From a virus (Duplodnaviria > Caudoviricetes): 64,000 nt of DNA. Within the stretch, counting starts at the first letter, position 1. Every line of letters starts with the position of its first letter. Of the stretch, positions 1,939 through 27,312 are shown piece after piece. The translations under genes and the position numbers were made by a program. The DNA lies in the IMG/VR virus record IMGVR_UViG_3300028833_000067, positions 1 to 64,000 of that record. One strand, written 5' to 3'. The notes under the pieces are model-generated. The model searched no databases. It was not told the DNA's origin and saw only the letters and a list, made by a program, of their open reading frames with translations.

Positions 1939-2286
1939 ATGGATATTGAAAATGCAAAAATTACAAATACACGTATTTCTATGGCCGATCATGGTTGCTT
2001 GACTTTTGATTTAATGCTTGAAGGTGACGGTTGGGGCTGTAGTTACGGTGGATATTGTATCGGTAATGGATACTTAGGTGCTAAAGAATTTACAGCAAGT
2101 TCGGGTAATGGACTCGTAGCTATGATGAAAATTATGGATACAGTTGGTGTAGAGCGCTGGGAAGATTTAGAGGGCAAATATATTCGGTGCAAGACAAATG
2201 GATTGGGCAGAACTATTGATGAAATTGGTAATTTGATAGAAGATAAATGGTTTAATATTCGTGAATTTTTTGCGAATAATAGTTGA
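1939..2286 (+). CDS. Hypothetical phage protein
   Basis: 115-aa ORF with GAGG SD. Confidence 0.75.
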   Translation: MDIENAKITNTRISMADHGCLTFDLMLEGDGWGCSYGGYCIGNGYLGAKEFTASSGNGLVAMMKIMDTVGVERWEDLEGKYIRCKTNGLGRTIDEIGNLIEDKWFNIREFFANNS

Positions 2287-2311
2287 CATTTTCTAAAATT
2301 TATGTTATAAT
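2283..2311 (+). promoter_or_regulatory. Sigma-A/70 promoter
   Basis: TTGACA-17 nt-TATAAT with TG extended -10. Confidence 0.9.
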
Positions 2312-2342
2312 AAATAAAAAGAAAGGAGTGAAAATATGAAAT

Positions 2343-2765
2343 ATGAAATAGCTTGATTTTATCCCAAATTAGAAGCATATTACTATTCACCGAGAAATGG
2401 TTAGAGATTCTAAAAAGCAAGAAAGACCATATTTAATTATGTATAGTGATAATATAATTGAGGCTATGCATAGATTAACTCCTAATGCTTTTAAAATTTA
2501 TATTTATTTATGTACTTTTAGATCTTATATGACAATGGCTTATAGCCCAGAATATATATCATAGCATTTAAATATGTGTAGAGATACTGCGAGAAAAGCT
2601 CTAAAGGAACTTGAAGAAAATGGATATTTATATTTAGGAGAAAATCAATATAAATTTTATTTTTATGAATCTCCTGAAATAATAAAGCAAGAAATGGTAG
2701 CAGATTATCAAGAACGAATTAAACAATTACAAGATATGATTTTAGCAATATAGGTAAAGGAGTGA
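2343..2765 (+). CDS. Winged-helix DNA-binding protein (TAG=Gln), 140 aa
   Basis: Absent from the ORF track. Open with TAG at 2349, 2370, 2562 and 2751. Contains LTPNAFKIYIYL...SPEYISQHLNMCRDTARKALKELEENGYL (wHTH pattern). AAGGAG SD, ends TGA. Confidence 0.8.
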
Positions 2766-5370: not shown

Positions 5371-5745
5371 ATGCATATGACAGTTAATAGTGAGCGCGTA
5401 CTAAATTTTTTAAAGGAACATTATGGTCAGGAATTTTCTAAGAATGAAATTAAGGATGCTCTAGGGATTTCTTTGAGCGCAGTTATTGGTAGTATTAATC
5501 CTCTTGAAAAGAATGGCTATACTCGTATTACTCGTACAGAAGTAGTTGAACTAGAACCAGCAACTGAGACTCGGAAAGCTAAGACTAAGGAAGTTAAGTA
5601 TCATACACTAACTGAAGCTGGCCTTGCCTACGATCCAGTAGCTGAAGAACAGGCTAAGCTCGCCGCAAAGCAGGCAGAAAAGGAACGCAAGGCCGCAGAA
5701 AAAGCAGCTGCGAAGGCCGCAAAGGAAGCAGAAGCAGAATTTTAA
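5371..5745 (+). CDS. Winged-helix DNA-binding protein with Lys/Ala-rich tail
   Basis: RVLNFLKEH...NEIKDALGISLSAVIGSINPLEKNGY...YHTLTEAG (wHTH pattern). Start may be 5377. Confidence 0.7.
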   Translation: MHMTVNSERVLNFLKEHYGQEFSKNEIKDALGISLSAVIGSINPLEKNGYTRITRTEVVELEPATETRKAKTKEVKYHTLTEAGLAYDPVAEEQAKLAAKQAEKERKAAEKAAAKAAKEAEAEF

Positions 5746-5781
5746 TTAAGAATAAATAACGAAGCAAAGGAGAAATGTAAA

Positions 5782-6684
5782 ATGAAAAGTATTAATATTC
5801 AGGCAACAAATAAACTAAATCTAGCAGGTACTCTAATGGATGTAACCTTCGGAGATGGTAAGCTATCTGATGGTCGTCCATATCAGCGTGCAACGGTAAC
5901 AGTTCGTGTTACTCAGACTTATGGCGGAAAGGAAGAAACTAGTGATGTACAGGTTGGTATGTTCGCAACTGAGTATACATCTACTGGTAAGAATAATCCT
6001 GCCTGGAAGAGCCTAAATGATCTAAAGCTAATGAAGACGGCACAGAATGTTGGTATTGATCATGCATCTCATGTACGTCTAACAGGCGCTTCTCTACAGG
6101 AAAATAACTTTGTATCTCGTACTGGACAGCTAATTAATGGTTGGCAGATTCGTGGTTCATTTATTAATGAGGCTCGTGTTGCAGATGTAGCATCTTTTGT
6201 AACTGATATCTTTATTATGGATATGCATGATGAAGTAGATCGTGAAGGTGATACTACAGGCCGTCTAGTGATTAAGGGTGGTATTGTACAGTATGGTGGA
6301 AAGCTCGACGTAGTTGAGTTTATTGTTGAAGCTCCCGATACTGTTGAATATATTTCTCGTAATTGGGAAACCAATGGTACAGTTACCGTTAAGGGCCGTA
6401 TTCGTGTTCTTTCTCAGGAAGAGGAAGTACAGTCTAGCGGCTGGGGTGAAGATGTACCAGAAACCACAACTAAGTTTGTGCGTGAGCTAATTATTACTAC
6501 TGGTGATGATGAATGTAAGGAAGAAGATTTTGCATATGATCCAGTAGAAATTAAGAAGGCATTTAATGAACGTAAGGCGGCAATTGAGCAGATGCAGATT
6601 AATGCTCGCGCTCATACTACAAAGCAGGGCGCTGGTAGTGCTAATGCCGCAGAAGCTTCCTCTAAGAAGTATGATTGGGAGTAA
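5782..6684 (+). CDS. Putative single-stranded DNA-binding protein (two OB-like halves)
   Basis: OB-type motifs (LAGTL, TVTVKGRI), acidic/aromatic C-terminus YDWE, next to a Sak4-like ATPase. Confidence 0.65.
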   Translation: MKSINIQATNKLNLAGTLMDVTFGDGKLSDGRPYQRATVTVRVTQTYGGKEETSDVQVGMFATEYTSTGKNNPAWKSLNDLKLMKTAQNVGIDHASHVRLTGASLQENNFVSRTGQLINGWQIRGSFINEARVADVASFVTDIFIMDMHDEVDREGDTTGRLVIKGGIVQYGGKLDVVEFIVEAPDTVEYISRNWETNGTVTVKGRIRVLSQEEEVQSSGWGEDVPETTTKFVRELIITTGDDECKEEDFAYDPVEIKKAFNERKAAIEQMQINARAHTTKQGAGSANAAEASSKKYDWE

Positions 6685-18663: not shown

Positions 18664-20466
18664 ATGAAATTACAAATTCGTAAACGTACTGGACAGTTAG
18701 TACCATTTGATAAAGAAAAAATTCAAACGGCTATATGTAAAGCTTGGCATGAAGTGTATCCTACAGAAACAGGTATGCCACCTTATGCTGCAGAGATAGC
18801 AAATGAGGTAGAGTATGTTGCTAATGAAATGGATGACCCACTTGGAGTAGAAGATATACAAGAATTAGTTGAAGACTATTTAACTGATTATGACTTAAAA
18901 GTTGGTAAAGCGTATATTAAGTATCGCTATAAACATGGTATTATGCGCGCAAATTCAACTGAATTTATTCGTGCTATTAGTGAAAAACTACAGGCATCTA
19001 ACGTGCAAAATCAAAATGCAAATATAGATGAACATTCATTTGGCGGCCGCGTCGGTGAAGCTTCTGATGAAATGATGAAGCAATATGCACTTGATTTTTG
19101 TATGTCTGAAATGGCTCGTAATAATCATTTAAATAATGAGATTTATATTCATGATTTAAGTGCTTATGCAGTAGGTATGCATAATTGTTTAAGTATTCCA
19201 TTTGATGATTTACTAGCTAAAGGATTTAACACTAGGCAAACGGATGTGCGCCCAGCTAATTCTATTAATACTGCTTTCCAGCTTGTGGCGGTTATATTCC
19301 AACTACAATCTTTAATGCAGTTTGGTGGCGTTAGCGCGACACATTTGGACTGGACGATGGTGCCTTATGTGAGGAAGAGTTTTTGGAAGCATTTTGATGA
19401 TGGAATTAAATACGTTGAAAATAAGGACGATTCAATAGAAGACATCAAAGAATATCATGGAGATTATATAAAAAATGAGAATCTCTCTATTAGCAAACCA
19501 ATTATTGGAAATCAAGATATTTCTAAAACTTATCCAAAAGCCTACAATTATGCAATGGATATGACTGAACGCGAACTTAAACAAGCCGTCGAAGGCATGT
19601 ATCATAACCTTAACACGCTCCAATCCAGAAGCGGAAATCAGCTGCCTTTCACATCCATTAATTATGGTACTTGTACACTACCTGAAGGTCGTATGGTAAT
19701 TAAGGCATTGCTAGAAGGCTCTATTAGGGGTGTAGGTAAATATCATAAAACTCCTATATTCCCATGTGGTATTTTCCAACTTGGAAAAGGCATTAATCGC
19801 GCGCCCGGTGATCCAAATTATGACTTATATCAACTTGCGCTTGAATCCACCGCTAAACGTATTTATCCCAATTATGCTAATATTGATTGGTCTGGAAATG
19901 CAGGATACGATCCAAACGATCCAACAACGTATTTCAGCACAATGGGATGCCGTACGGCAAATGGCGCGGACATAAATGCAGAACCAGGTGTTAATCCACA
20001 ACGTAAGGATGGCCGCGGAAATATATGTCCTGTTACTATTATTATGCCGACTATTGCAATGAATGCTAAATCAGCTTCAAATAATCCAAGAGGATGGGAT
20101 AGAGAAGAAGATTTAATTAATCATTTCTTACGTTGCTTAGATCAAAAGATACATGAGGCTAAAGATATGCTTCTTGAACGTTTTGAATGGATTTGTAAGC
20201 AGTCTCCTGCTTCTGCAAAGTTTATGTATGAAAATAATACGATGCTCGGTTATCATCCAGAAGAAGGAATTCGCTCAGCATTAAAGCATGGTACTATTGT
20301 TATCGGGCAGTTAGGACTTGCGGAAACGCTTCAAATCTTAATTGGCTGTGATCATACAACTGAAAAAGGAATGGAATTAGCTAAGAGGATTGAGCAACTA
20401 TTTAAAGATAGATGTGCAGAATTTAAAAAAGAATATAAATTAAACTTCGGAGTATATTACACTCCT
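18664..20466 (+). CDS. nrdD: Anaerobic (class III) ribonucleotide reductase, exon 1
   Basis: ATP-cone, YIHDL, HNC, QSRSGNQLPFTSIN, TPIFP, TMGCR, GRGN. Ends at GVYYTP. Confidence 0.95.
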
Positions 20467-21411
20467 AAACTATTCGGATTGGGAGTCGCGTAAGTAATTA
20501 CGTGAAAAAAGAACCCCATTAAACGGGCAATCGTAATAAGATGGTAAGAAAGCCTAAACCAAATAAATGGCAAGGTAATCCCGTAGGATAAAATTTTTAG
20601 TAAAACAGAAGTTTTCACTAAAGTTCATTAGAAGCTTCTCCTACTATTTATATAGAAGGAGGTGGTCAAAATGGCCCGCAGAAAAATGAATGATAAATTA
20701 ATTCACAAAACTGAAATTAAAGAAGAACTAAGACTTATAAAAGGTAGCCAAACCGATTATATTACTCCAACTGGTAATGTTTATAAAGATTATGGAAATG
20801 ATTTATTCTATCATAAATCAGTATTTCCAAATAAGAATAATGGATATATGTATTGTGGAATCACTTATCCAGAAGGATAGCGGCAGCGACGAGTACATAT
20901 TTTAGTCGCAGAAGCTTATATTCCTAATCCAAATAATTATCCAGTAGTAATGCATTTAGATAATGATAAGACTAATTTAAATGTTAATAACTTACGTTGG
21001 GGTACGGTCGCGGAAAATACACAAGCGGCATTTGATGATGGTTTGGCCGAAAACGATAAGAGTTGGGAAGATTCTCAATCAATTCATGTTTGTGTCTTTA
21101 ATATGCAACAAGAATTATTAAATAAATATGGTTCAGTGAGTGAAGCTTCTAGACAATTAGGAGTTACAAAAACTACAATACTCAATCAATGTAACCATAA
21201 TGTGAAAACTAAGCCAAGATGCGGATATTATTTCCGTTATTTATCTGAATATGAAACTAAAGGTTTTGTTCTCTAACGACTATCGAAAGCAATAAAAGAA
21301 GTGAGTAGAGTAGCACATAAGTGCGAAAGATGGGGCTCCTGTTGAAAAATTACAGGATGAAAATATAGTCTAATCCCCTTATGAAATATCGGGAAACCGA
21401 GGGTTCAAATG
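20467..21411 (+). ncRNA. Group I self-splicing intron in nrdD (945 nt)
   Basis: Exon ACTCCT pairs with IGS GGGAGT (U-G at splice site). P3 CCCCAT/ATGGGG, P4 ACGGG/CCCGT, P7 GACTA/TAGTC, terminal G at 21411. Splicing restores YYTP|AENLC. Confidence 0.93.
20671..21276 (+). CDS. Intron-encoded HNH homing endonuclease, I-HmuI-like (TAG=Gln), 201 aa
   Basis: One TAG (20878) joins two track fragments. RVHILVAEAYIPNP..PVVMHLDNDKTNLNVNNLRW, C-terminal NUMOD1 (SVSEASRQLG...GYYFRY). Confidence 0.9.
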
Positions 21412-21882
21412 GCCGAAAATCTTTGCTATACAGCCATGAAGAAATTTAAGGCAAAATACGGCGAAATTCCAAATGTTTCCGACCATGAATATTTTACAAA
21501 TAGTATTCATGTGCCAGTATGGCATGACATTTCCGTATTTGATAAGATTGATATTGAAAGTCAGCTAACTGGATATTCTAGCGCAGGATGCATTACATAT
21601 GTAGAAGTTCCTTCTGGTGTAAAGAATAACATTCCCGCACTTGAAACAATAGTAAATTACGCTATGGATCACGACATACCTTATTTCGCTTTGAACGTGC
21701 CGCTAGATATGTGTAATGACTGCGGTTATCAGGATGAAATCGGTGAAACCTGTCCTGAATGTGGTAGTAAGAACATTTCAAGGCTTAGACGTGTAACCGG
21801 ATATCTTACTGGTTCCTATAAAGATGCTTTCAACTGGGGCAAGCAGAAAGAAGTTGAAGCAAGGGTTAAGCATATACACTAA
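21412..21882 (+). CDS. nrdD: Class III ribonucleotide reductase, exon 2
   Basis: AENLC, YFTNSIHVP, CxxC/CxxC Zn site, glycyl-radical RRVTGYL. Confidence 0.95.
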   Translation, partial: AENLCYTAMKKFKAKYGEIPNVSDHEYFTNSIHVPVWHDISVFDKIDIESQLTGYSSAGCITYVEVPSGVKNNIPALETIVNYAMDHDIPYFALNVPLDMCNDCGYQDEIGETCPECGSKNISRLRRVTGYLTGSYKDAFNWGKQKEVEARVKHIH

Positions 21883-22382
21883 TGAGTAAGATTGCAGGAA
21901 TTTATTGGGATGATACCGCGGCCGCGCCCGGTATCTCCCTCTCAGTGTATTTTTCGGGATGTCATTTCCATTGCCCCGGATGTCATAATCCCGAAGCACA
22001 AGATTTTAATTATGGGCGTGAATATAACTTAGATATACGCCAAGAGATTATGCAGAAACTCAATAAAAATGGAGTTATGCGTACATTAAGTATTCTCGGT
22101 GGCGAGCCATTAGCCGATGAAAACTTAGAAGACGTAATGAATTTAATTGGCTGGTGTAAGTTAGATTATCCAGATTTAAAAATCTATTTATGGACAGGTT
22201 ATACAATGGAAGAATTAGAGAAGCGTGATAATCGTACTTTAGATCATATCCTACATAATATTACTTGCCTAATAGATGGCCGCTATGAACAGGATAAAAG
22301 AGATACGACATTGCCATTACGTGGCTCTTCTAATCAACGAATAATTAATATGGAGAAATATTATGAAGAAGGACATATATAA
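21882..22382 (+). CDS. nrdG: Anaerobic RNR activating enzyme (radical SAM)
   Basis: SGCHFHCPGCHN, LGGEP, WTGY, IDGRY, RGSSNQR. Confidence 0.96.
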   Translation: MSKIAGIYWDDTAAAPGISLSVYFSGCHFHCPGCHNPEAQDFNYGREYNLDIRQEIMQKLNKNGVMRTLSILGGEPLADENLEDVMNLIGWCKLDYPDLKIYLWTGYTMEELEKRDNRTLDHILHNITCLIDGRYEQDKRDTTLPLRGSSNQRIINMEKYYEEGHI

Positions 22383-22914
22383 GTCAATACTAGCTGGAAT
22401 GGCGATTGCATTAGGCTGCTGGATGTATCTAGCAGCTCCTAATGCAGTAGTTGGCGCTTTTTTATTTTCATGCGGATTACTTACAGTCCGTTTATATAAA
22501 TTGAATTTATTTACTGGTAAAATCCAATTTATGGTGACCAAGCGATATCCTTGGTATTTCTATTTAATAGTATTTCTTGGAAATATTATCGGAGTATCGC
22601 TAATGGCACTACTCGCGCACAATAATGCTTCTGCAGCAATAGCTACTACAAAAGTTGCTCAACCAATATGGGAAGCAATGTTTAAAGGAATAGGATGTGG
22701 TATGCTAATGTCTATAGCAACCTATGAAAAATCTCCCATATGGATGTGTATTCCATGTGTAATGGGTTTTATTCTTGGTGGTTTTAATCATTGCATTGCA
22801 GACGCATATTATATGATTGCTGCCGGTACAGTTGGAATTTCATTAATTGGAACTATTATTGGTAATTTATTTGGCGGCATTATTTTTAGTAATCTTATAG
22901 AATCAAATATTTGA
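22363..22914 (+). CDS. Formate/nitrite transporter (FNT, FocA-like) channel
   Basis: About six hydrophobic segments with SILAG, LFSCGL, LFTGK, GNIIG, GCGMLM, GFNHCIAD and GNLFGG, matching FNT motifs. Confidence 0.85.
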   Translation: MKKDIYKSILAGMAIALGCWMYLAAPNAVVGAFLFSCGLLTVRLYKLNLFTGKIQFMVTKRYPWYFYLIVFLGNIIGVSLMALLAHNNASAAIATTKVAQPIWEAMFKGIGCGMLMSIATYEKSPIWMCIPCVMGFILGGFNHCIADAYYMIAAGTVGISLIGTIIGNLFGGIIFSNLIESNI

Positions 22915-22939
22915 CAAACTCCCAGAAATCTGTTATAAT
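22911..22939 (+). promoter_or_regulatory. Sigma-A/70 promoter
   Basis: TTGACA-17 nt-TATAAT with TG extension. Confidence 0.9.
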
Positions 22940-22970
22940 AAAGTATAAAGAAATAAAGTGGTGATTGGAT

Positions 22971-23999
22971 GTGATATTTGCCCTTATTGGTTGCTTAATT
23001 ATAATTGGATTTCTGGGAGTTAAACTTTATTAGAAGAAAGTTATTGATACTCAATTAATGGATGAGTATTAGACATAGATACAAAAGGTTAAAGAACAAT
23101 TAGATTCTGACCAAGAGGTCTTGAACCAATATACTAGTAAATTACTAGACGTTCGTATAAAAGTTAATACTGAGCAGCAAAAGCTAACGGATTTATATAA
23201 TTAGTTAGATAGTGTTGAAACTAGCTTAAAAGATTCTCGTGATGAATATCATCATTTAATAAATGATAAGATGAAAGAAATAGACGAGACGATTGAAGAA
23301 CAGCGGCGAAAGCGCTAGCAAGAATTAGATTCTACATTAAAAGAAAAACAAAATTATTATAATAAATTACTTGAAGATACTATTAATCAATGTAATTTAT
23401 AGGATGAAACAATTAAAGAAGCTTCAGAAGCTAGATGGCGCGAAGCTATAGAACAAATGGAACGATATGATAAATCTATTGCAGAAGCTAAAGAACGATT
23501 TGAAAGTATTGAACGAACTTTAAAACAATATGATGCTGAATAGCAAGCTAAATTATTTTATACAATTCAATTACCTGATGAATATAAAGATGACATTGAA
23601 TTTTTGCTGACGACCGTATCTATGAAGGTATAGCATCCAGATATTATTTCTAAGCTAGTTTGGGCAGAATATGTTAAGCCAAACTTAGACGATACATTCA
23701 AACGAATTGAAATTAAAGCAGAGCCAGGGATTTATAAGATAACTAATATAAATACTGGTAAATGTTATATTGGAAAAAGTACTAATGTAAAGACGCGAAT
23801 TGCAGACCATTTCAAGTCTTCTATCGGCATTCGTTCAATAGCAGACCAAGTTGTGCATCATGCTATTCTTAAAGAAGGATTTTGGAACTGGGCAATTGAA
23901 GTTATTACGTATTGCGATAAAGAACGATTGAGTGAGTTAGAGAAATATTATATTACATTTTTTAAATCAATGGAGCATGGGTATAATAAAATATTATGA
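22971..23999 (+). CDS. Membrane-anchored coiled-coil GIY-YIG nuclease (TAG=Gln), 342 aa
   Basis: GTG start. TM (IFALIGCLIIIGFLGV), ~170-aa coiled coil, GIYKITN..TGKCYIGKS...RIADH...EKYYI...GYN. Eight in-frame TAGs. Absent from the track. Confidence 0.85.
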
Positions 24000-24754
24000 G
24001 TATACGAACAAATAAAATTGGAAAACAATTTGGTAAATTAATTGTTGACAGTATAAATAAGGAAAAATCAACAAGTAAGCATACATATTTTAATTGTCAT
24101 TGCCTATGCGGGAATCCAAATATTATTGTTAAACGAAGTGATAACTTAAATGCAAATAGCAACTGTGGTTGCGAACCTAATCATAGTGTATCTCAAAAAT
24201 CAATTGATGCTTTAGTTGCATATAGCAAACAATAGGAGACAAAACTGTTAGGTCAAAAATTTGGAAAATTAACAGTAATTGAATATATAGGAAAAATACC
24301 TGAGCAGTGTAATGCCAATGTCTGGAAATGCTAGTGTGATTGTGGAAATATTATGTATGCTACAACTAGTTCATTGAATAGTGGACATGTAAAAAGTTGT
24401 GGTTGTTTACGTTCTTATAAAGAAATGTTAATTAAAAAGTTCCTTAATGAATAGCATATTCCCTTTAAATAGGAATATTGTTTTTCAGACTTAAAAAATC
24501 CAGATACTGGATGCGCTTTAAGATATGATTTTGCTTTATTTAATAAAGAAGAACAATTAATAGGATTAATTGAGTATAATGGAGAATAGCATTATAATAA
24601 AAATTCTGCTTGGTATTCAAAAGATTATATAATAAGAGACCAATAGAAAATAAAATATTGCCAAAATAAAAAGATTGCTCTTTTAATATTAAATCAAGAT
24701 AATTTTTCATATGATTTAATTTTAGATTTTTATAATCGTAATGCTGGAGGATAA
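23996..24754 (+). mobile_element. Free-standing putative homing endonuclease: two Cys-rich repeats plus Vsr/DUF559-like nuclease (TAG=Gln), 252 aa
   Basis: FGKLxV...WKCQCDCG...KSCGC repeats, LRYDF...IEYNGEQHY...RDQQKIKYC. Six TAGs. Confidence 0.8.
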
Positions 24755-24755
24755 G

Positions 24756-25178
24756 ATGTTAGAAACGAATGAAATCAATGAGGTTCAAAGGCCAACTACA
24801 GAAACAAATCAACACTTATCATGTGATGAACTTATTGAAAGATATGCGTAGATACAAAATATAAGTATTGAACAAGCGAAAGAAGAAGTTAGCGCTCCTA
24901 CTGAAGAAGAAATCCTTAAAAAGATACAAAACAAGACAATTGAAAAAATTAATAGCACTAGAGTGCCAATGAACAGAGCGCAAAGGCGCGCATTAAAAAA
25001 GAAAATTGGTGCGAAAAAGTACGCTGAAATGATTGGAAGCGGAGATGTAGTTGAGACAGTTAGTGAAACTGCAAAAAAGCTTAATTATATTGATTTAATA
25101 CAAAAATTAAGAAAATTAAATGAAGAAAAAGAAAAGGAGATTGAAGAAAATGGCGAGACAACTACTGAAGACAACTGA
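24756..25178 (+). CDS. Hypothetical protein (TAG=Gln), 140 aa
   Basis: GGAGG SD, one TAG, NRAQRR motif. Extends track ORF 24963-25178. Confidence 0.7.
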
Positions 25179-25373: not shown

Positions 25374-26138
25374 ATGAATGAACTACAGGCGCTAATAGAA
25401 GCAATTTAGAAATTAGCTGATATGGAATTAACTGATGAAACATTAACAGAAATTACACGTAATGTAGATTCGCAATTTAGTAATGAAGTTGTTATGCAGT
25501 CTATTAATTAGATCGTTACTAATTTAAACGATCAGGGGCTAACAAAGAAAGAGGCTAAAGAAGCCGTCGAAACTCTTTGCTCAGTCTTAAATGAAATGGT
25601 TTATGAAGGAAAGGGATATACTGGTAATAAGAAAGTTCTTGTTGATACAATAATGGCTAAAGTTTTTAATATTTTTTATAAGGCTTTAGATAAGTATCAT
25701 TCTTATGCTATTGAACTTCCTATTCAATTAGAAGAAGGCGCGCAGGTGCCTACATATGCGCATGATAGTGATGCGGCCGCAGATATGTATGCAATGGAAG
25801 ACATTGAAATCTCAGCTCATACTAAGGGCGTACCAGTAAAAACTGGCGTACATATCCAATTACCAGAAGGCTGGGTCGCATTTATTCTACCTCGCTCTAG
25901 TATCGGCGCAAAAACTCCTCTGCGTCTTAGCAATAGCGCTGGTGTAATTGATAGCGGATATCGCGGTGAAGTTCGCGCGCTATATGATAATATTGGTGAT
26001 GAGCCCTATCAAATTCATAAGGGCGACCGCATTGCTCAGATGCTAGTAATGCCTTCTTATAGATTTAAGGCTAATGTAGTGGATTCTCTAGAGGATTCTG
26101 ATAGGGGCGAAGCTGGCTTCGGTTCTACAGGTGTATGA
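25374..26138 (+). CDS. dut: Trimeric dUTPase with N-terminal helical extension (TAG=Gln), 254 aa
   Basis: AAADM, PRSSIG, GVIDSGYRGE, GDRIAQ, RGEAGFGSTG. GAGGTG SD at 25361. Two TAGs in the extension. Confidence 0.92.
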
Positions 26139-26881
26139 GTACCATAAATATTTATTCTGTTTCTAATGCCTTAGAAGCAGAAGGTTGGAAACTCATAAGT
26201 GAAACCTATAAGAACCTCAAGACTCCACTTGAAATGGAATGTCCAGCTGGACACAAACAAGAATAGACTTTTGAGAACTGGCGAAAACATAAGATATGTG
26301 ATATATGTATGGCCGGTGATCCATATAAAGTTAAAAAAAATAATGTGCCCCCAAAGGGCACAGATACGTAGCGTATTTTAGCGCTAGACGCCGCAACAAG
26401 TGTAACGGGATATGCAATATACGATGATAAGATTTTAGTTAATTATGGAGTTTATAAAACTAGTTCAACCTTATCATTGTCAGAACGAATTAATTAGGTT
26501 AAAAATTGGCTTAAAGCCGCAATTAAAACTTGGGAACCAGACTTTATAGCTATGGAAAATATATAGCTTCAAAGCTATGGAGCGAAGTCAAATCAAGTAC
26601 AAGTAAAAACATTTTAGGCATTAGCTAATTTACAAGGAGTATTATTAGATACAATATTTGAAGCCTGTGTAGATCATGACTTAGTTTATCCGAGCGAATG
26701 GCGTTCATATTGTGGAATAAATGATGGAGATTAGCATAGAGATGCTAAAAAGAAGTAGGCTTAGGCTAAAGTAAAAATTTGGTACGGTATTGATTGTACT
26801 GAAGATGAATCTGACGCTATTTGTATTGGTAAATACTTTTGCGGCAAATTAAAAAAGAATGTTTGGGGTGAAGATATATGA
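26135..26881 (+). CDS. ruvC: RuvC-like Holliday junction resolvase with N-terminal Zn ribbon (TAG=Gln), 248 aa
   Basis: CPAGH..CDIC, RILALDAATSVTGYA, IAME, PSEWR, EDESDAICIG. Eight TAGs. Absent from the track. Confidence 0.85.
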
Positions 26882-27273: not shown

Positions 27274-27312
27274 AAAATAAAGCCCCGCACTATATGTGCG
27301 GGGCATTTTTTT
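27272..27312. terminator. Bidirectional intrinsic terminator between convergent modules
   Basis: A-run, GCCCCGCAC-TATAT-GTGCGGGGC, T-run. Confidence 0.92.

Follow-up and report, generated by a model that had tools for sequence, protein, structure and literature searches.

A predicted membrane-anchored GIY-YIG nuclease, conserved in large phages of gut and rumen Bacillota, resembles the bacterial defence nuclease SNIPE in its layout

What use would a large phage have for a DNA-cutting enzyme fixed to the membrane of its host? This question is raised by a gene found in the IMG/VR virus record IMGVR_UViG_3300028833_000067, which has 176,887 bases and is judged 98% complete; our analysis concerns mainly its positions 1-64,000 (the window, with a G+C content of 34%), to which the coordinates below refer unless the genome is named. 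The gene, which lies behind a promoter of its own, encodes a nuclease of the GIY-YIG superfamily with an N-terminal transmembrane (TM) helix and a long stalk. Here we show that it is a real and conserved gene, that its product is anchored by prediction and has its catalytic residues intact, and that its overall plan is that of the bacterial defence nuclease SNIPE, reached from other parts. It may serve to exclude further phages from a cell that is already infected.

An earlier note on this DNA had described the gene as invisible in the usual bacterial code, and this is indeed the case. Under translation table 11 the region 22911-23999 yields nothing but fragments of at most 48 amino acids, whereas reading TAG as glutamine gives a single open reading frame (ORF) of 344 codons on the + strand (22965-23999), with eight in-frame TAGs at codons 23, 36, 38, 80, 118, 146, 193 and 223. 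The same change of code raises the cover of the window by ORFs of at least 100 codons from 63% to 98%. At codons 23, 118, 193 and 223 an ordinary Gln codon is present in five to six of seven TAG-free orthologues; TAG stands here at glutamine positions, and the gene is, judged by its codons, a code-15 (TAG=Gln) recoded phage gene. The ORF listing begins it at TTG 22965, and the residue numbers used here follow that 344-residue numbering. The start is GTG 22971: relatives have an ATG at the aligned position, and the Shine-Dalgarno sequence GGTGA precedes the GTG by 6 nucleotides (nt). The protein therefore has 342 amino acids.

The predicted protein consists of a TM anchor, a helical stalk, a conserved helical pre-domain and a C-terminal catalytic domain (Table 1). 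In a model produced by AlphaFold2 from a 132-sequence alignment, with a mean predicted local distance difference test (pLDDT) score of 92.4, a single helix runs over residues 3-197 (pLDDT up to 98), followed by two pre-domain helices, 205-221 and 225-248, and then by the beta-alpha domain. The long helix includes 173 residues without Pro or Gly, and it aligns to straight coiled coils of ~196 residues; the stalk, of ~175 residues in this copy, would reach roughly 26 nm if straight. Both the TM anchor proposed earlier, a hydrophobic segment followed directly by basic residues, and the long coiled coil are borne out by these features. A layout in which an N-terminal TM helix and a long helix carry a cytoplasmic head is found likewise in phi29 p16.7 (TM helix, coiled coil and DNA-binding domain), in RNase Y (KH-HD RNase domains) and in ATP synthase subunit b. 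The heads of these proteins differ, that of subunit b serving as a stator contact, unlike a nuclease head, and no homology is implied. The stalks of subunit b are matched weakly by the family profile, with E between 4e-4 and 0.1. Matches to spanin and tape-measure models of PHROG, and to the JetC, LmuB and ZorA models of PADLOC, were confined to the TM and stalk regions, where composition is their simplest explanation, and we rejected them.

The catalytic domain is of the GIY-YIG type. It matches Pfam PF01541 (E=1.6e-9), as do all 132 members of the family alignment, and in a profile comparison it matches I-TevI (E=2.3e-12), with the catalytic domain of which the model superimposes closely (Foldseek TM-score ~0.8; VIA-align Z 11.5, root mean square deviation (rmsd) 1.8 Å over 90 residues). 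Residues G255, Y257, Y268, G270, R278 and H282 are invariant in the 132-sequence alignment, and E326 and N341 are conserved in at least 90% of the sequences, as are D210, I211 and K230 of the pre-domain. Thus, the protein is a member of the GIY-YIG superfamily with all catalytic residues present, which agrees with the earlier description of an intact domain, and the enzyme looks active as far as its residues can tell.

Relatives of this protein are numerous, and they share its plan. A word-indexed protein search gave 1510 matches, the best 120 of which are mostly ~344 amino acids long, 62-100% identical, and come from contigs of up to 192 kb. With an exhaustive search the number of representatives was 6104 at E<=1e-3, falling to 913 at E<=1e-10 and to 73 at E<=1e-30; the 913 are clusters at 50% identity, and the weaker ones probably include other GIY-YIG proteins. 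Among the representatives listed, 124 have 280 amino acids or more, and 121 of these possess an N-terminal hydrophobic helix. In every one of the 119 that were scored, Lys and Arg are more numerous after this helix than before it (4.45 within 15 residues versus 0.13), and the median number of residues that precede it is 0. Since the charges follow the helix and almost nothing stands in front of it, the topology is predicted to be N-out, C-in, and the nuclease should face the cytoplasm. In the family as a whole the stalk has 106-184 residues (~16-27 nm), a net charge of -7 and only 17% identity, the pre-domain has 54-59 residues and is 38% identical, and the nuclease domain has 86-90 residues and is 54% identical. 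Within the clade of the present phage the corresponding values are 43% for the TM helix, 26-33% for the stalk, 79% for the pre-domain and 81% for the nuclease.

The family is a viral one. The nearest Atlas clusters, found with the homologue P0003 as query, are 86-100% viral; a scan of 185,579 species genomes with the single protein detected no close relative, and a scan of the same genomes with a 24-sequence alignment detected only five contigs of metagenome-assembled genomes. In annotation the family is missing or fragmented, because many of its members need TAG to be read as Gln. Phage Phass-1 (OQ749652; locus L001) provides an example: its orthologue, at 5467-6447, has 326 amino acids and eight TAGs, and the annotation splits it into the hypothetical proteins WIC39637 and WIC39636. 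Full-text literature searches for a phage membrane-anchored GIY-YIG nuclease returned SNIPE papers only, and the phage family appears to be undescribed.

Conservation of the gene in relatives, a check that had been proposed earlier, was assessed without bias by fetching 44 viral loci via the neighbouring NrdG and scanning all six frames, with TAG=Gln, for matches to the family profile. In all 37 loci where the identity of NrdG reaches 60% and the downstream sequence is long enough, the gene lies 0.1-1.1 kb after nrdG; 36 copies are full-length, and the remaining one is truncated by the end of its contig. Outside these 37, five loci had no room for the gene, and in two distant ones (NrdG 45-47% identical) it was absent from the vicinity. 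The order of genes in relatives, whose proteins are 65-89% identical, is DnaE, two small genes, NrdD, NrdG, often a gene similar to the formate/nitrite transporter family (FNT), the nuclease, small genes and dUTPase, followed by giant virion genes on the reverse strand. The nuclease therefore belongs to the core genes of a clade of phages of Bacillota from the gut or rumen, with genomes of roughly 165-190 kb. Members only 25-27% identical sit in other large phages beside ligase, UvrD, gyrase/topoisomerase, YorF, DnaB and RecJ. The possibility that the nuclease gene evolves unusually fast was considered and rejected: the neighbouring DNA is equally diverged (73-87% at the nucleotide level) and only the stalk falls below blastn detection, so that the divergence of the gene relative to its surroundings gives no clear signal of an arms race.

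Such a constant position bears on the interpretation that the protein is a free-standing GIY-YIG homing endonuclease of the Seg or I-TevI type. Its best PHROG and PADLOC matches are models named 'homing endonuclease', I-TevI is its closest solved structure, and the catalytic fold and residues of the two are alike. However, those models match residues ~236-344 only, and the order of domains is reversed: the phage protein carries its catalytic domain at the C-terminal end, with neither a linker nor a DNA-binding domain behind it, and a membrane anchor and a stalk stand in front. No match to NUMOD, IENR or helix-turn-helix (HTH) domains was found by Pfam in the nuclease protein or in the 132 members of its family. 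The real homing genes of the same loci are sporadic, ordinary free-standing GIY-YIG ORFs are seen in some of these loci only, and few of the loci have one between nrdD and nrdG, whereas the nuclease keeps its place in 37/37. On synteny and domain order we rejected homing, to which we give practically no credence; the earlier statement that this is not a homing-endonuclease layout stands.

Another system with a C-terminal GIY-YIG domain is Uzume, a single-gene defence system, the UzuA model of which matches 63/132 family members (best E 2.5e-11). The match is limited to model positions 182-277 of 278. The UzuA proteins fetched from Bacillota are soluble, of ~280 amino acids, with a globular N-terminal domain and neither TM helix nor stalk. 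Membership of Uzume was rejected, as the nuclease domain alone is shared.

The closest known counterpart in layout is SNIPE (Saxton et al., Nature 2026, PMC13190303), to which PD-lambda-1 of E. coli (Vassallo et al. 2022, PMC9519451) corresponds. SNIPE consists of a TM helix, a DUF4041 domain, a helix and a GIY-YIG nuclease, its N-terminus being periplasmic and the remainder cytoplasmic. DUF4041 is needed for defence and binds both DNA and the tape measure protein. Incoming phage DNA is cut, while an induced prophage is not affected, that is, the resident phage genome is spared; SNIPE devoid of its TM helix cuts host DNA, so the tether prevents cleavage of the host chromosome (PMC13190303). 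The phage nuclease shares with SNIPE the single N-terminal TM helix, the N-out/C-in topology (here by prediction), the long helical region, the C-terminal cytoplasmic nuclease of the GIY-YIG superfamily, and a conservation that is high in the nuclease and low toward the N-terminal region. It may also share the logic of a tether which spares DNA already resident in the cell.

Could the phage protein then be a divergent but true SNIPE homologue, captured by a phage? Apart from the common layout, the PADLOC PD-Lambda-1 model gave a weak match in 6/132 members (best E 2.9e-4), which in the one member examined lay in the TM/stalk region. Yet DUF4041 (PF13250) is matched by at most 1/132 members (Pfam, E<=0.01), and a six-frame search of the 176.9-kb genome for PF13250 found no match. 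The nuclease is also of another kind, I-TevI-like rather than T5orf172/MUG113: PF01541 is found in 132/132 members and T5orf172 in one (E 1.2e-3), whereas among six DUF4041 proteins taken for comparison from 401 Bacillota genomes, three of which have an N-terminal TM helix, MUG113 is matched by 6/6 and T5orf172 by 5/6, with E from 1e-15 to 1e-20. Alignment of the phage family with these six proteins by hhalign reached a probability of 2.5%, and the aligned part was limited to 27 columns around the first strand of the GIY motif. The folded model of one Bacillota SNIPE homologue (pLDDT 76) has a ~90-residue stalk, a globular DUF4041 region, ~110 residues of helix and the nuclease; this mid-stalk globular insert has no counterpart in the uninterrupted phage stalk. 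Finally, the phage gene is a core gene of large phages without sign of lysogeny, unlike SNIPE, which resides in bacterial defence islands or prophages. That the protein is a true SNIPE homologue is thus highly improbable, and membership was rejected by Pfam, by the six-frame search and by hhalign, PADLOC having given only weak matches. The earlier claim of a SNIPE/PD-lambda-1 architecture holds for the order of anchor, stalk and C-terminal nuclease, and fails for the family. The sequences indicate that the two share layout but not ancestry beyond the GIY-YIG superfamily, and the phage nuclease is a convergent, phage-borne analogue of SNIPE.

If the layout is a guide to function, the phage enzyme would cleave DNA entering through the membrane, and so bring about superinfection exclusion. 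This is the function that we favour, tentatively, because it explains the tether, the topology, a stalk bounded in length but free in sequence, and the independent strong promoter. The TM helix would fix the nuclease to the cytoplasmic membrane, and the stalk would hold the head, composed of the pre-domain and the nuclease, in the cytoplasm; that the stalk acts as a spacer is suggested by the range of 106-184 residues kept at so low an identity. Such a tether would keep a non-specific or weakly specific nuclease off the nucleoid and off the phage's own replicating DNA, so that only DNA crossing the zone under the membrane, of an injected second phage or another mobile element, would be cut. 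This spatial logic would be that of bacterial SNIPE, reached independently.

Several points weigh against superinfection exclusion. The function has been read from the layout alone. No DUF4041 and no basic domain that might bind DNA or a tape measure protein was seen, and the charge of the pre-domain is nearly neutral or acidic instead of basic. Genes for exclusion tend to be accessory and to change fast, while the present protein has a highly conserved head and its gene belongs to the core, set amid topoisomerase, ligase, ribonucleotide reductase (RNR), dUTPase and a RuvC-like resolvase; this conservation and this DNA-metabolism setting would also fit housekeeping DNA processing. Moreover, the stalk would keep the head away from the entry pore, at a distance of up to ~26 nm from the membrane, and the standard-code relatives lack any delay imposed by TAG.

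The position of the gene right after nrdD-nrdG (and the FNT-like gene) and ahead of dUTPase, a nucleotide-metabolism setting, would suit degradation of host DNA for takeover or nucleotide salvage, as by T4 endonuclease II (DenA), which is likewise a phage-encoded, non-homing GIY-YIG nuclease, and the gene of which presumably lies near the nrd genes of T4. The strong early-type promoter points in the same direction, as does the structural alignment of the T4 enzyme (2wsh_A) with residues 198-343 of the model (Z 8.1, rmsd 2.9 Å, 105 residues), which reaches into the pre-domain; a Z of 8.1, however, is within the range that the tool calls common. T4 endonuclease II is small, soluble and early, and acts on host DNA, unlike the tethered phage nuclease. 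A permanent membrane tether would keep the enzyme off the nucleoid, and in SNIPE it is the tether that prevents host-DNA cleavage (PMC13190303). In recoded lineages synthesis of the protein would have to await the code switch, a late moment for takeover, and distant members of the family are found beside ligase or topoisomerase and not beside RNR. Shredding of host DNA, which the earlier note had offered as its second option, seems unlikely, and it fits a tethered enzyme less well than superinfection exclusion does.

A different use of the tether would be membrane-attached processing (trimming, nicking or anchoring) of the phage's own DNA during replication, recombination or packaging, in the manner of phi29 p16.7. 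The gene always lies in a replication module with DnaE, gyrase/topoisomerase, ligase, UvrD, DnaB, RecJ and YorF. It belongs to the core, the head of its product is very conserved, a TAG-rich RuvC-like resolvase is encoded in the same operon, and in recoded lineages the TAG load of the nuclease gene resembles that of the large TAG-rich virion genes of this genome (2.3% versus 2.1-2.4% of codons). On the other hand, this phage already has a resolvase for debranching, Pfam found no DNA-binding module beyond the nuclease in the protein or in the 132 members, anchoring needs no long variable spacer, and the enzyme would be expected to cut rather than merely to bind, because its catalytic residues are strictly kept. 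We consider such processing quite unlikely.

A separate problem is the meaning of the TAG codons. The TAG share of Gln codons is 8/24 in the nuclease gene, 0/56 in DnaE and 0/25 in NrdD, and at 2.3% of codons the TAG density of the nuclease gene is comparable to that of giant TAG-rich virion genes (2.1-2.4%). Because a third of its Gln codons are TAG, no full-length protein can be made in this lineage before TAG is decoded. Until TAG is read as Gln, recoded lineages would make only a membrane peptide of ~20 residues, the first TAG being placed, as noted earlier, just after the TM helix (codon 23 directly follows residues 3-22). Synthesis of the nuclease would be delayed relative to the TAG-free replication genes, and this may protect the phage's own long genome during entry.

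It had further been observed that all eight TAGs precede the nuclease domain. This is true of the present copy, but it has no significance: the domain holds one Gln codon, and absence of TAG from it is expected by chance (P=0.67, hypergeometric test), while among relatives TAGs occur inside the domain, at position 293 in 8 orthologues and at position 334 in 10 (counted from the GTG start). We therefore rejected the idea that TAGs spare the nuclease domain. Nor is a TAG 'lock' part of the design, as the earlier note had supposed. The 31 distinct orthologues comprise 24 with 7-14 TAGs and seven with none; the loci of the seven read well under table 11, with 84-98% ORF cover (94-98% but for one short locus), and they keep the same promoter. 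TAG positions follow Gln content, and the lock is a trait of recoded lineages, since seven standard-code orthologues keep the gene without any TAG. The timing by TAG is thus an add-on of those lineages and not the basic mechanism. Sister loci L033, L034 and L036-L039, which come from IMG/VR contigs of 13.6-184 kb (103-184 kb in four cases), keep this order of genes and read well under the standard code across the 10-14 kb fetched. As sister phages with the same order of genes can be read under the standard code, recoding is, by this reading, patchy within the clade. These standard-code phages provide natural controls for the timing hypothesis.

It is possible, and we put this forward with more caution than the function itself, that phages of gut and rumen Bacillota independently built a SNIPE-like stalked nuclease (16-27 nm) patrolling the DNA-free submembrane zone, as a widespread, core-gene form of superinfection exclusion, for which the code switch would act as a safety timer in recoded lineages. 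Defence by position, in which the place of the DNA and not its nature decides whether it is cut, was demonstrated as recently as 2026, with bacterial SNIPE (PMC13190303). If the proposal is true, this design arose at least twice, the second time from unrelated parts, and phages employ it against one another as a permanent component of their genomes and not as an optional extra. The gene, with an early-type promoter and late-type codons, would also be a test case for stop-codon recoding as a timer of protein synthesis.

The promoter had been described as a perfect sigma-A promoter, and this is confirmed (Table 1). Its -35 hexamer shares sequence with the stop codon that ends the FNT-like gene upstream. 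A promoter matching at 11-12 of 12 positions, with a 17-nt spacer and 26-54 nt ahead of the start, was found in 36/36 orthologous loci, and in the distant lineages Phass-1, L005 and L007 similar promoters lie 24-28 nt upstream of the orthologue. This phage clearly uses promoters of the sigma-A type, since its genome has 62 sites matching at least 11/12, compared with 12.4 in shuffles; 56 of them are on the + strand. Near-consensus sigma-A promoters are densest at 69-92 kb and 140-176 kb of the genome. The operon begun at 22911 probably ends at a bidirectional hairpin, and contains the nuclease, an inserted HNH-like gene, a 145-amino-acid ORF, dUTPase, the RuvC-like resolvase and a 131-amino-acid ORF.

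Table 1. Features of the nuclease locus (positions in the 64,000-nt window; aa, amino acids)
Feature	Position	Strand	Remarks
Sigma-A type promoter, TTGACA-17 nt-TATAAT, extended -10 TG	22911..22939	+	12/12 match, best in 13-28 kb
Shine-Dalgarno sequence GGTGA	22960..22964	+	read from sequence; aligned with GGTGAT before ATG of relatives
Predicted membrane-tethered GIY-YIG nuclease, coding sequence, 342 aa	22971..23999	+	GTG start, TGA stop, 8 TAG read as Gln
N-terminal TM anchor (predicted), residues 3-22	22971..23030	+	hydrophobic; almost nothing before, Lys-rich KLYQKK after
Helical stalk, residues 23-197	23031..23555	+	acidic, no Pro/Gly; seven TAGs: 23031, 23070, 23076, 23202, 23316, 23400, 23541
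Conserved 56-aa helical pre-domain, residues 198-253	23556..23723	+	no Pfam family; eighth TAG at 23631
GIY-YIG catalytic domain, I-TevI type, residues 254-344	23724..23996	+	Pfam PF01541
HNH-like endonuclease ORF, 6 TAG	insert 23982..24754 (ORF 23996-24754)	+	phrog_374, phrog_9084
dUTPase/DCD	25374-26138		operon of nuclease
RuvC-like Holliday junction resolvase, 248 aa, 8 TAGs	26135-26881		phrog_827 at 1.7e-22; operon of nuclease
Bidirectional terminator hairpin	27282..27304	.	9-bp stem, 8 GC pairs, T runs on both strands

The 3' end of the nuclease gene is altered in the present phage. Its product ends with GYNKIL*, where the family has GYNxxxGG*, and the HNH-like ORF that follows ends with FYNRNAGG*, carrying the displaced nuclease tail RNAGG*. 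The insert begins at the Tyr-Asn codons TATAAT at 23982, and a second TATAAT is present at 24731. Five relatives (L008, L010, L011, L013 and L063) show no match to the insert, the nearest alignments stopping at window positions 23963-23991 and restarting at 24816-25064. The junction repeats, the gap in relatives and the displaced tail indicate that a mobile endonuclease gene was inserted in the last codons of the nuclease gene, displacing its conserved tail. The catalytic residues all remain despite this insertion. In addition, nrdD is split by ~945 nt (window 20467-21411) that hold an HNH ORF (20662-21276, 1 TAG); five relatives align directly from 20466 to 21412, so this interruption is an insertion specific to this phage.

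The FNT-like gene (22363-22914), which separates nrdG from the nuclease, is probably accessory: it appears to be absent from several of the relatives compared (L031, L032, L035, L037-L039 and L046), and in these the nuclease frame begins no more than ~130 nt beyond nrdG. A combination of early promoter and late codons similar to that of the nuclease gene is shown by a gene for a 140-amino-acid protein with an HTH_36/DnaD-like N-terminal part (window 2283-2765), which has four TAGs and its own 12/12 sigma-A promoter.

As to the decoding of TAG, ARAGORN at default settings found no tRNA with the anticodon CTA in the whole genome, though TAG is used as Gln throughout. When introns were allowed, it gave one tRNA(CTA) candidate with a 175-nt intron, at 140729-140991 of the genome, where Rfam detected nothing, as might be the case if an interrupted tRNA escapes detection. 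Just ahead of this tRNA region, at 140285-140351 of the genome, lies a cow-rumen-4 RNA motif of Rfam, with 57.6 bits, above the gathering score.

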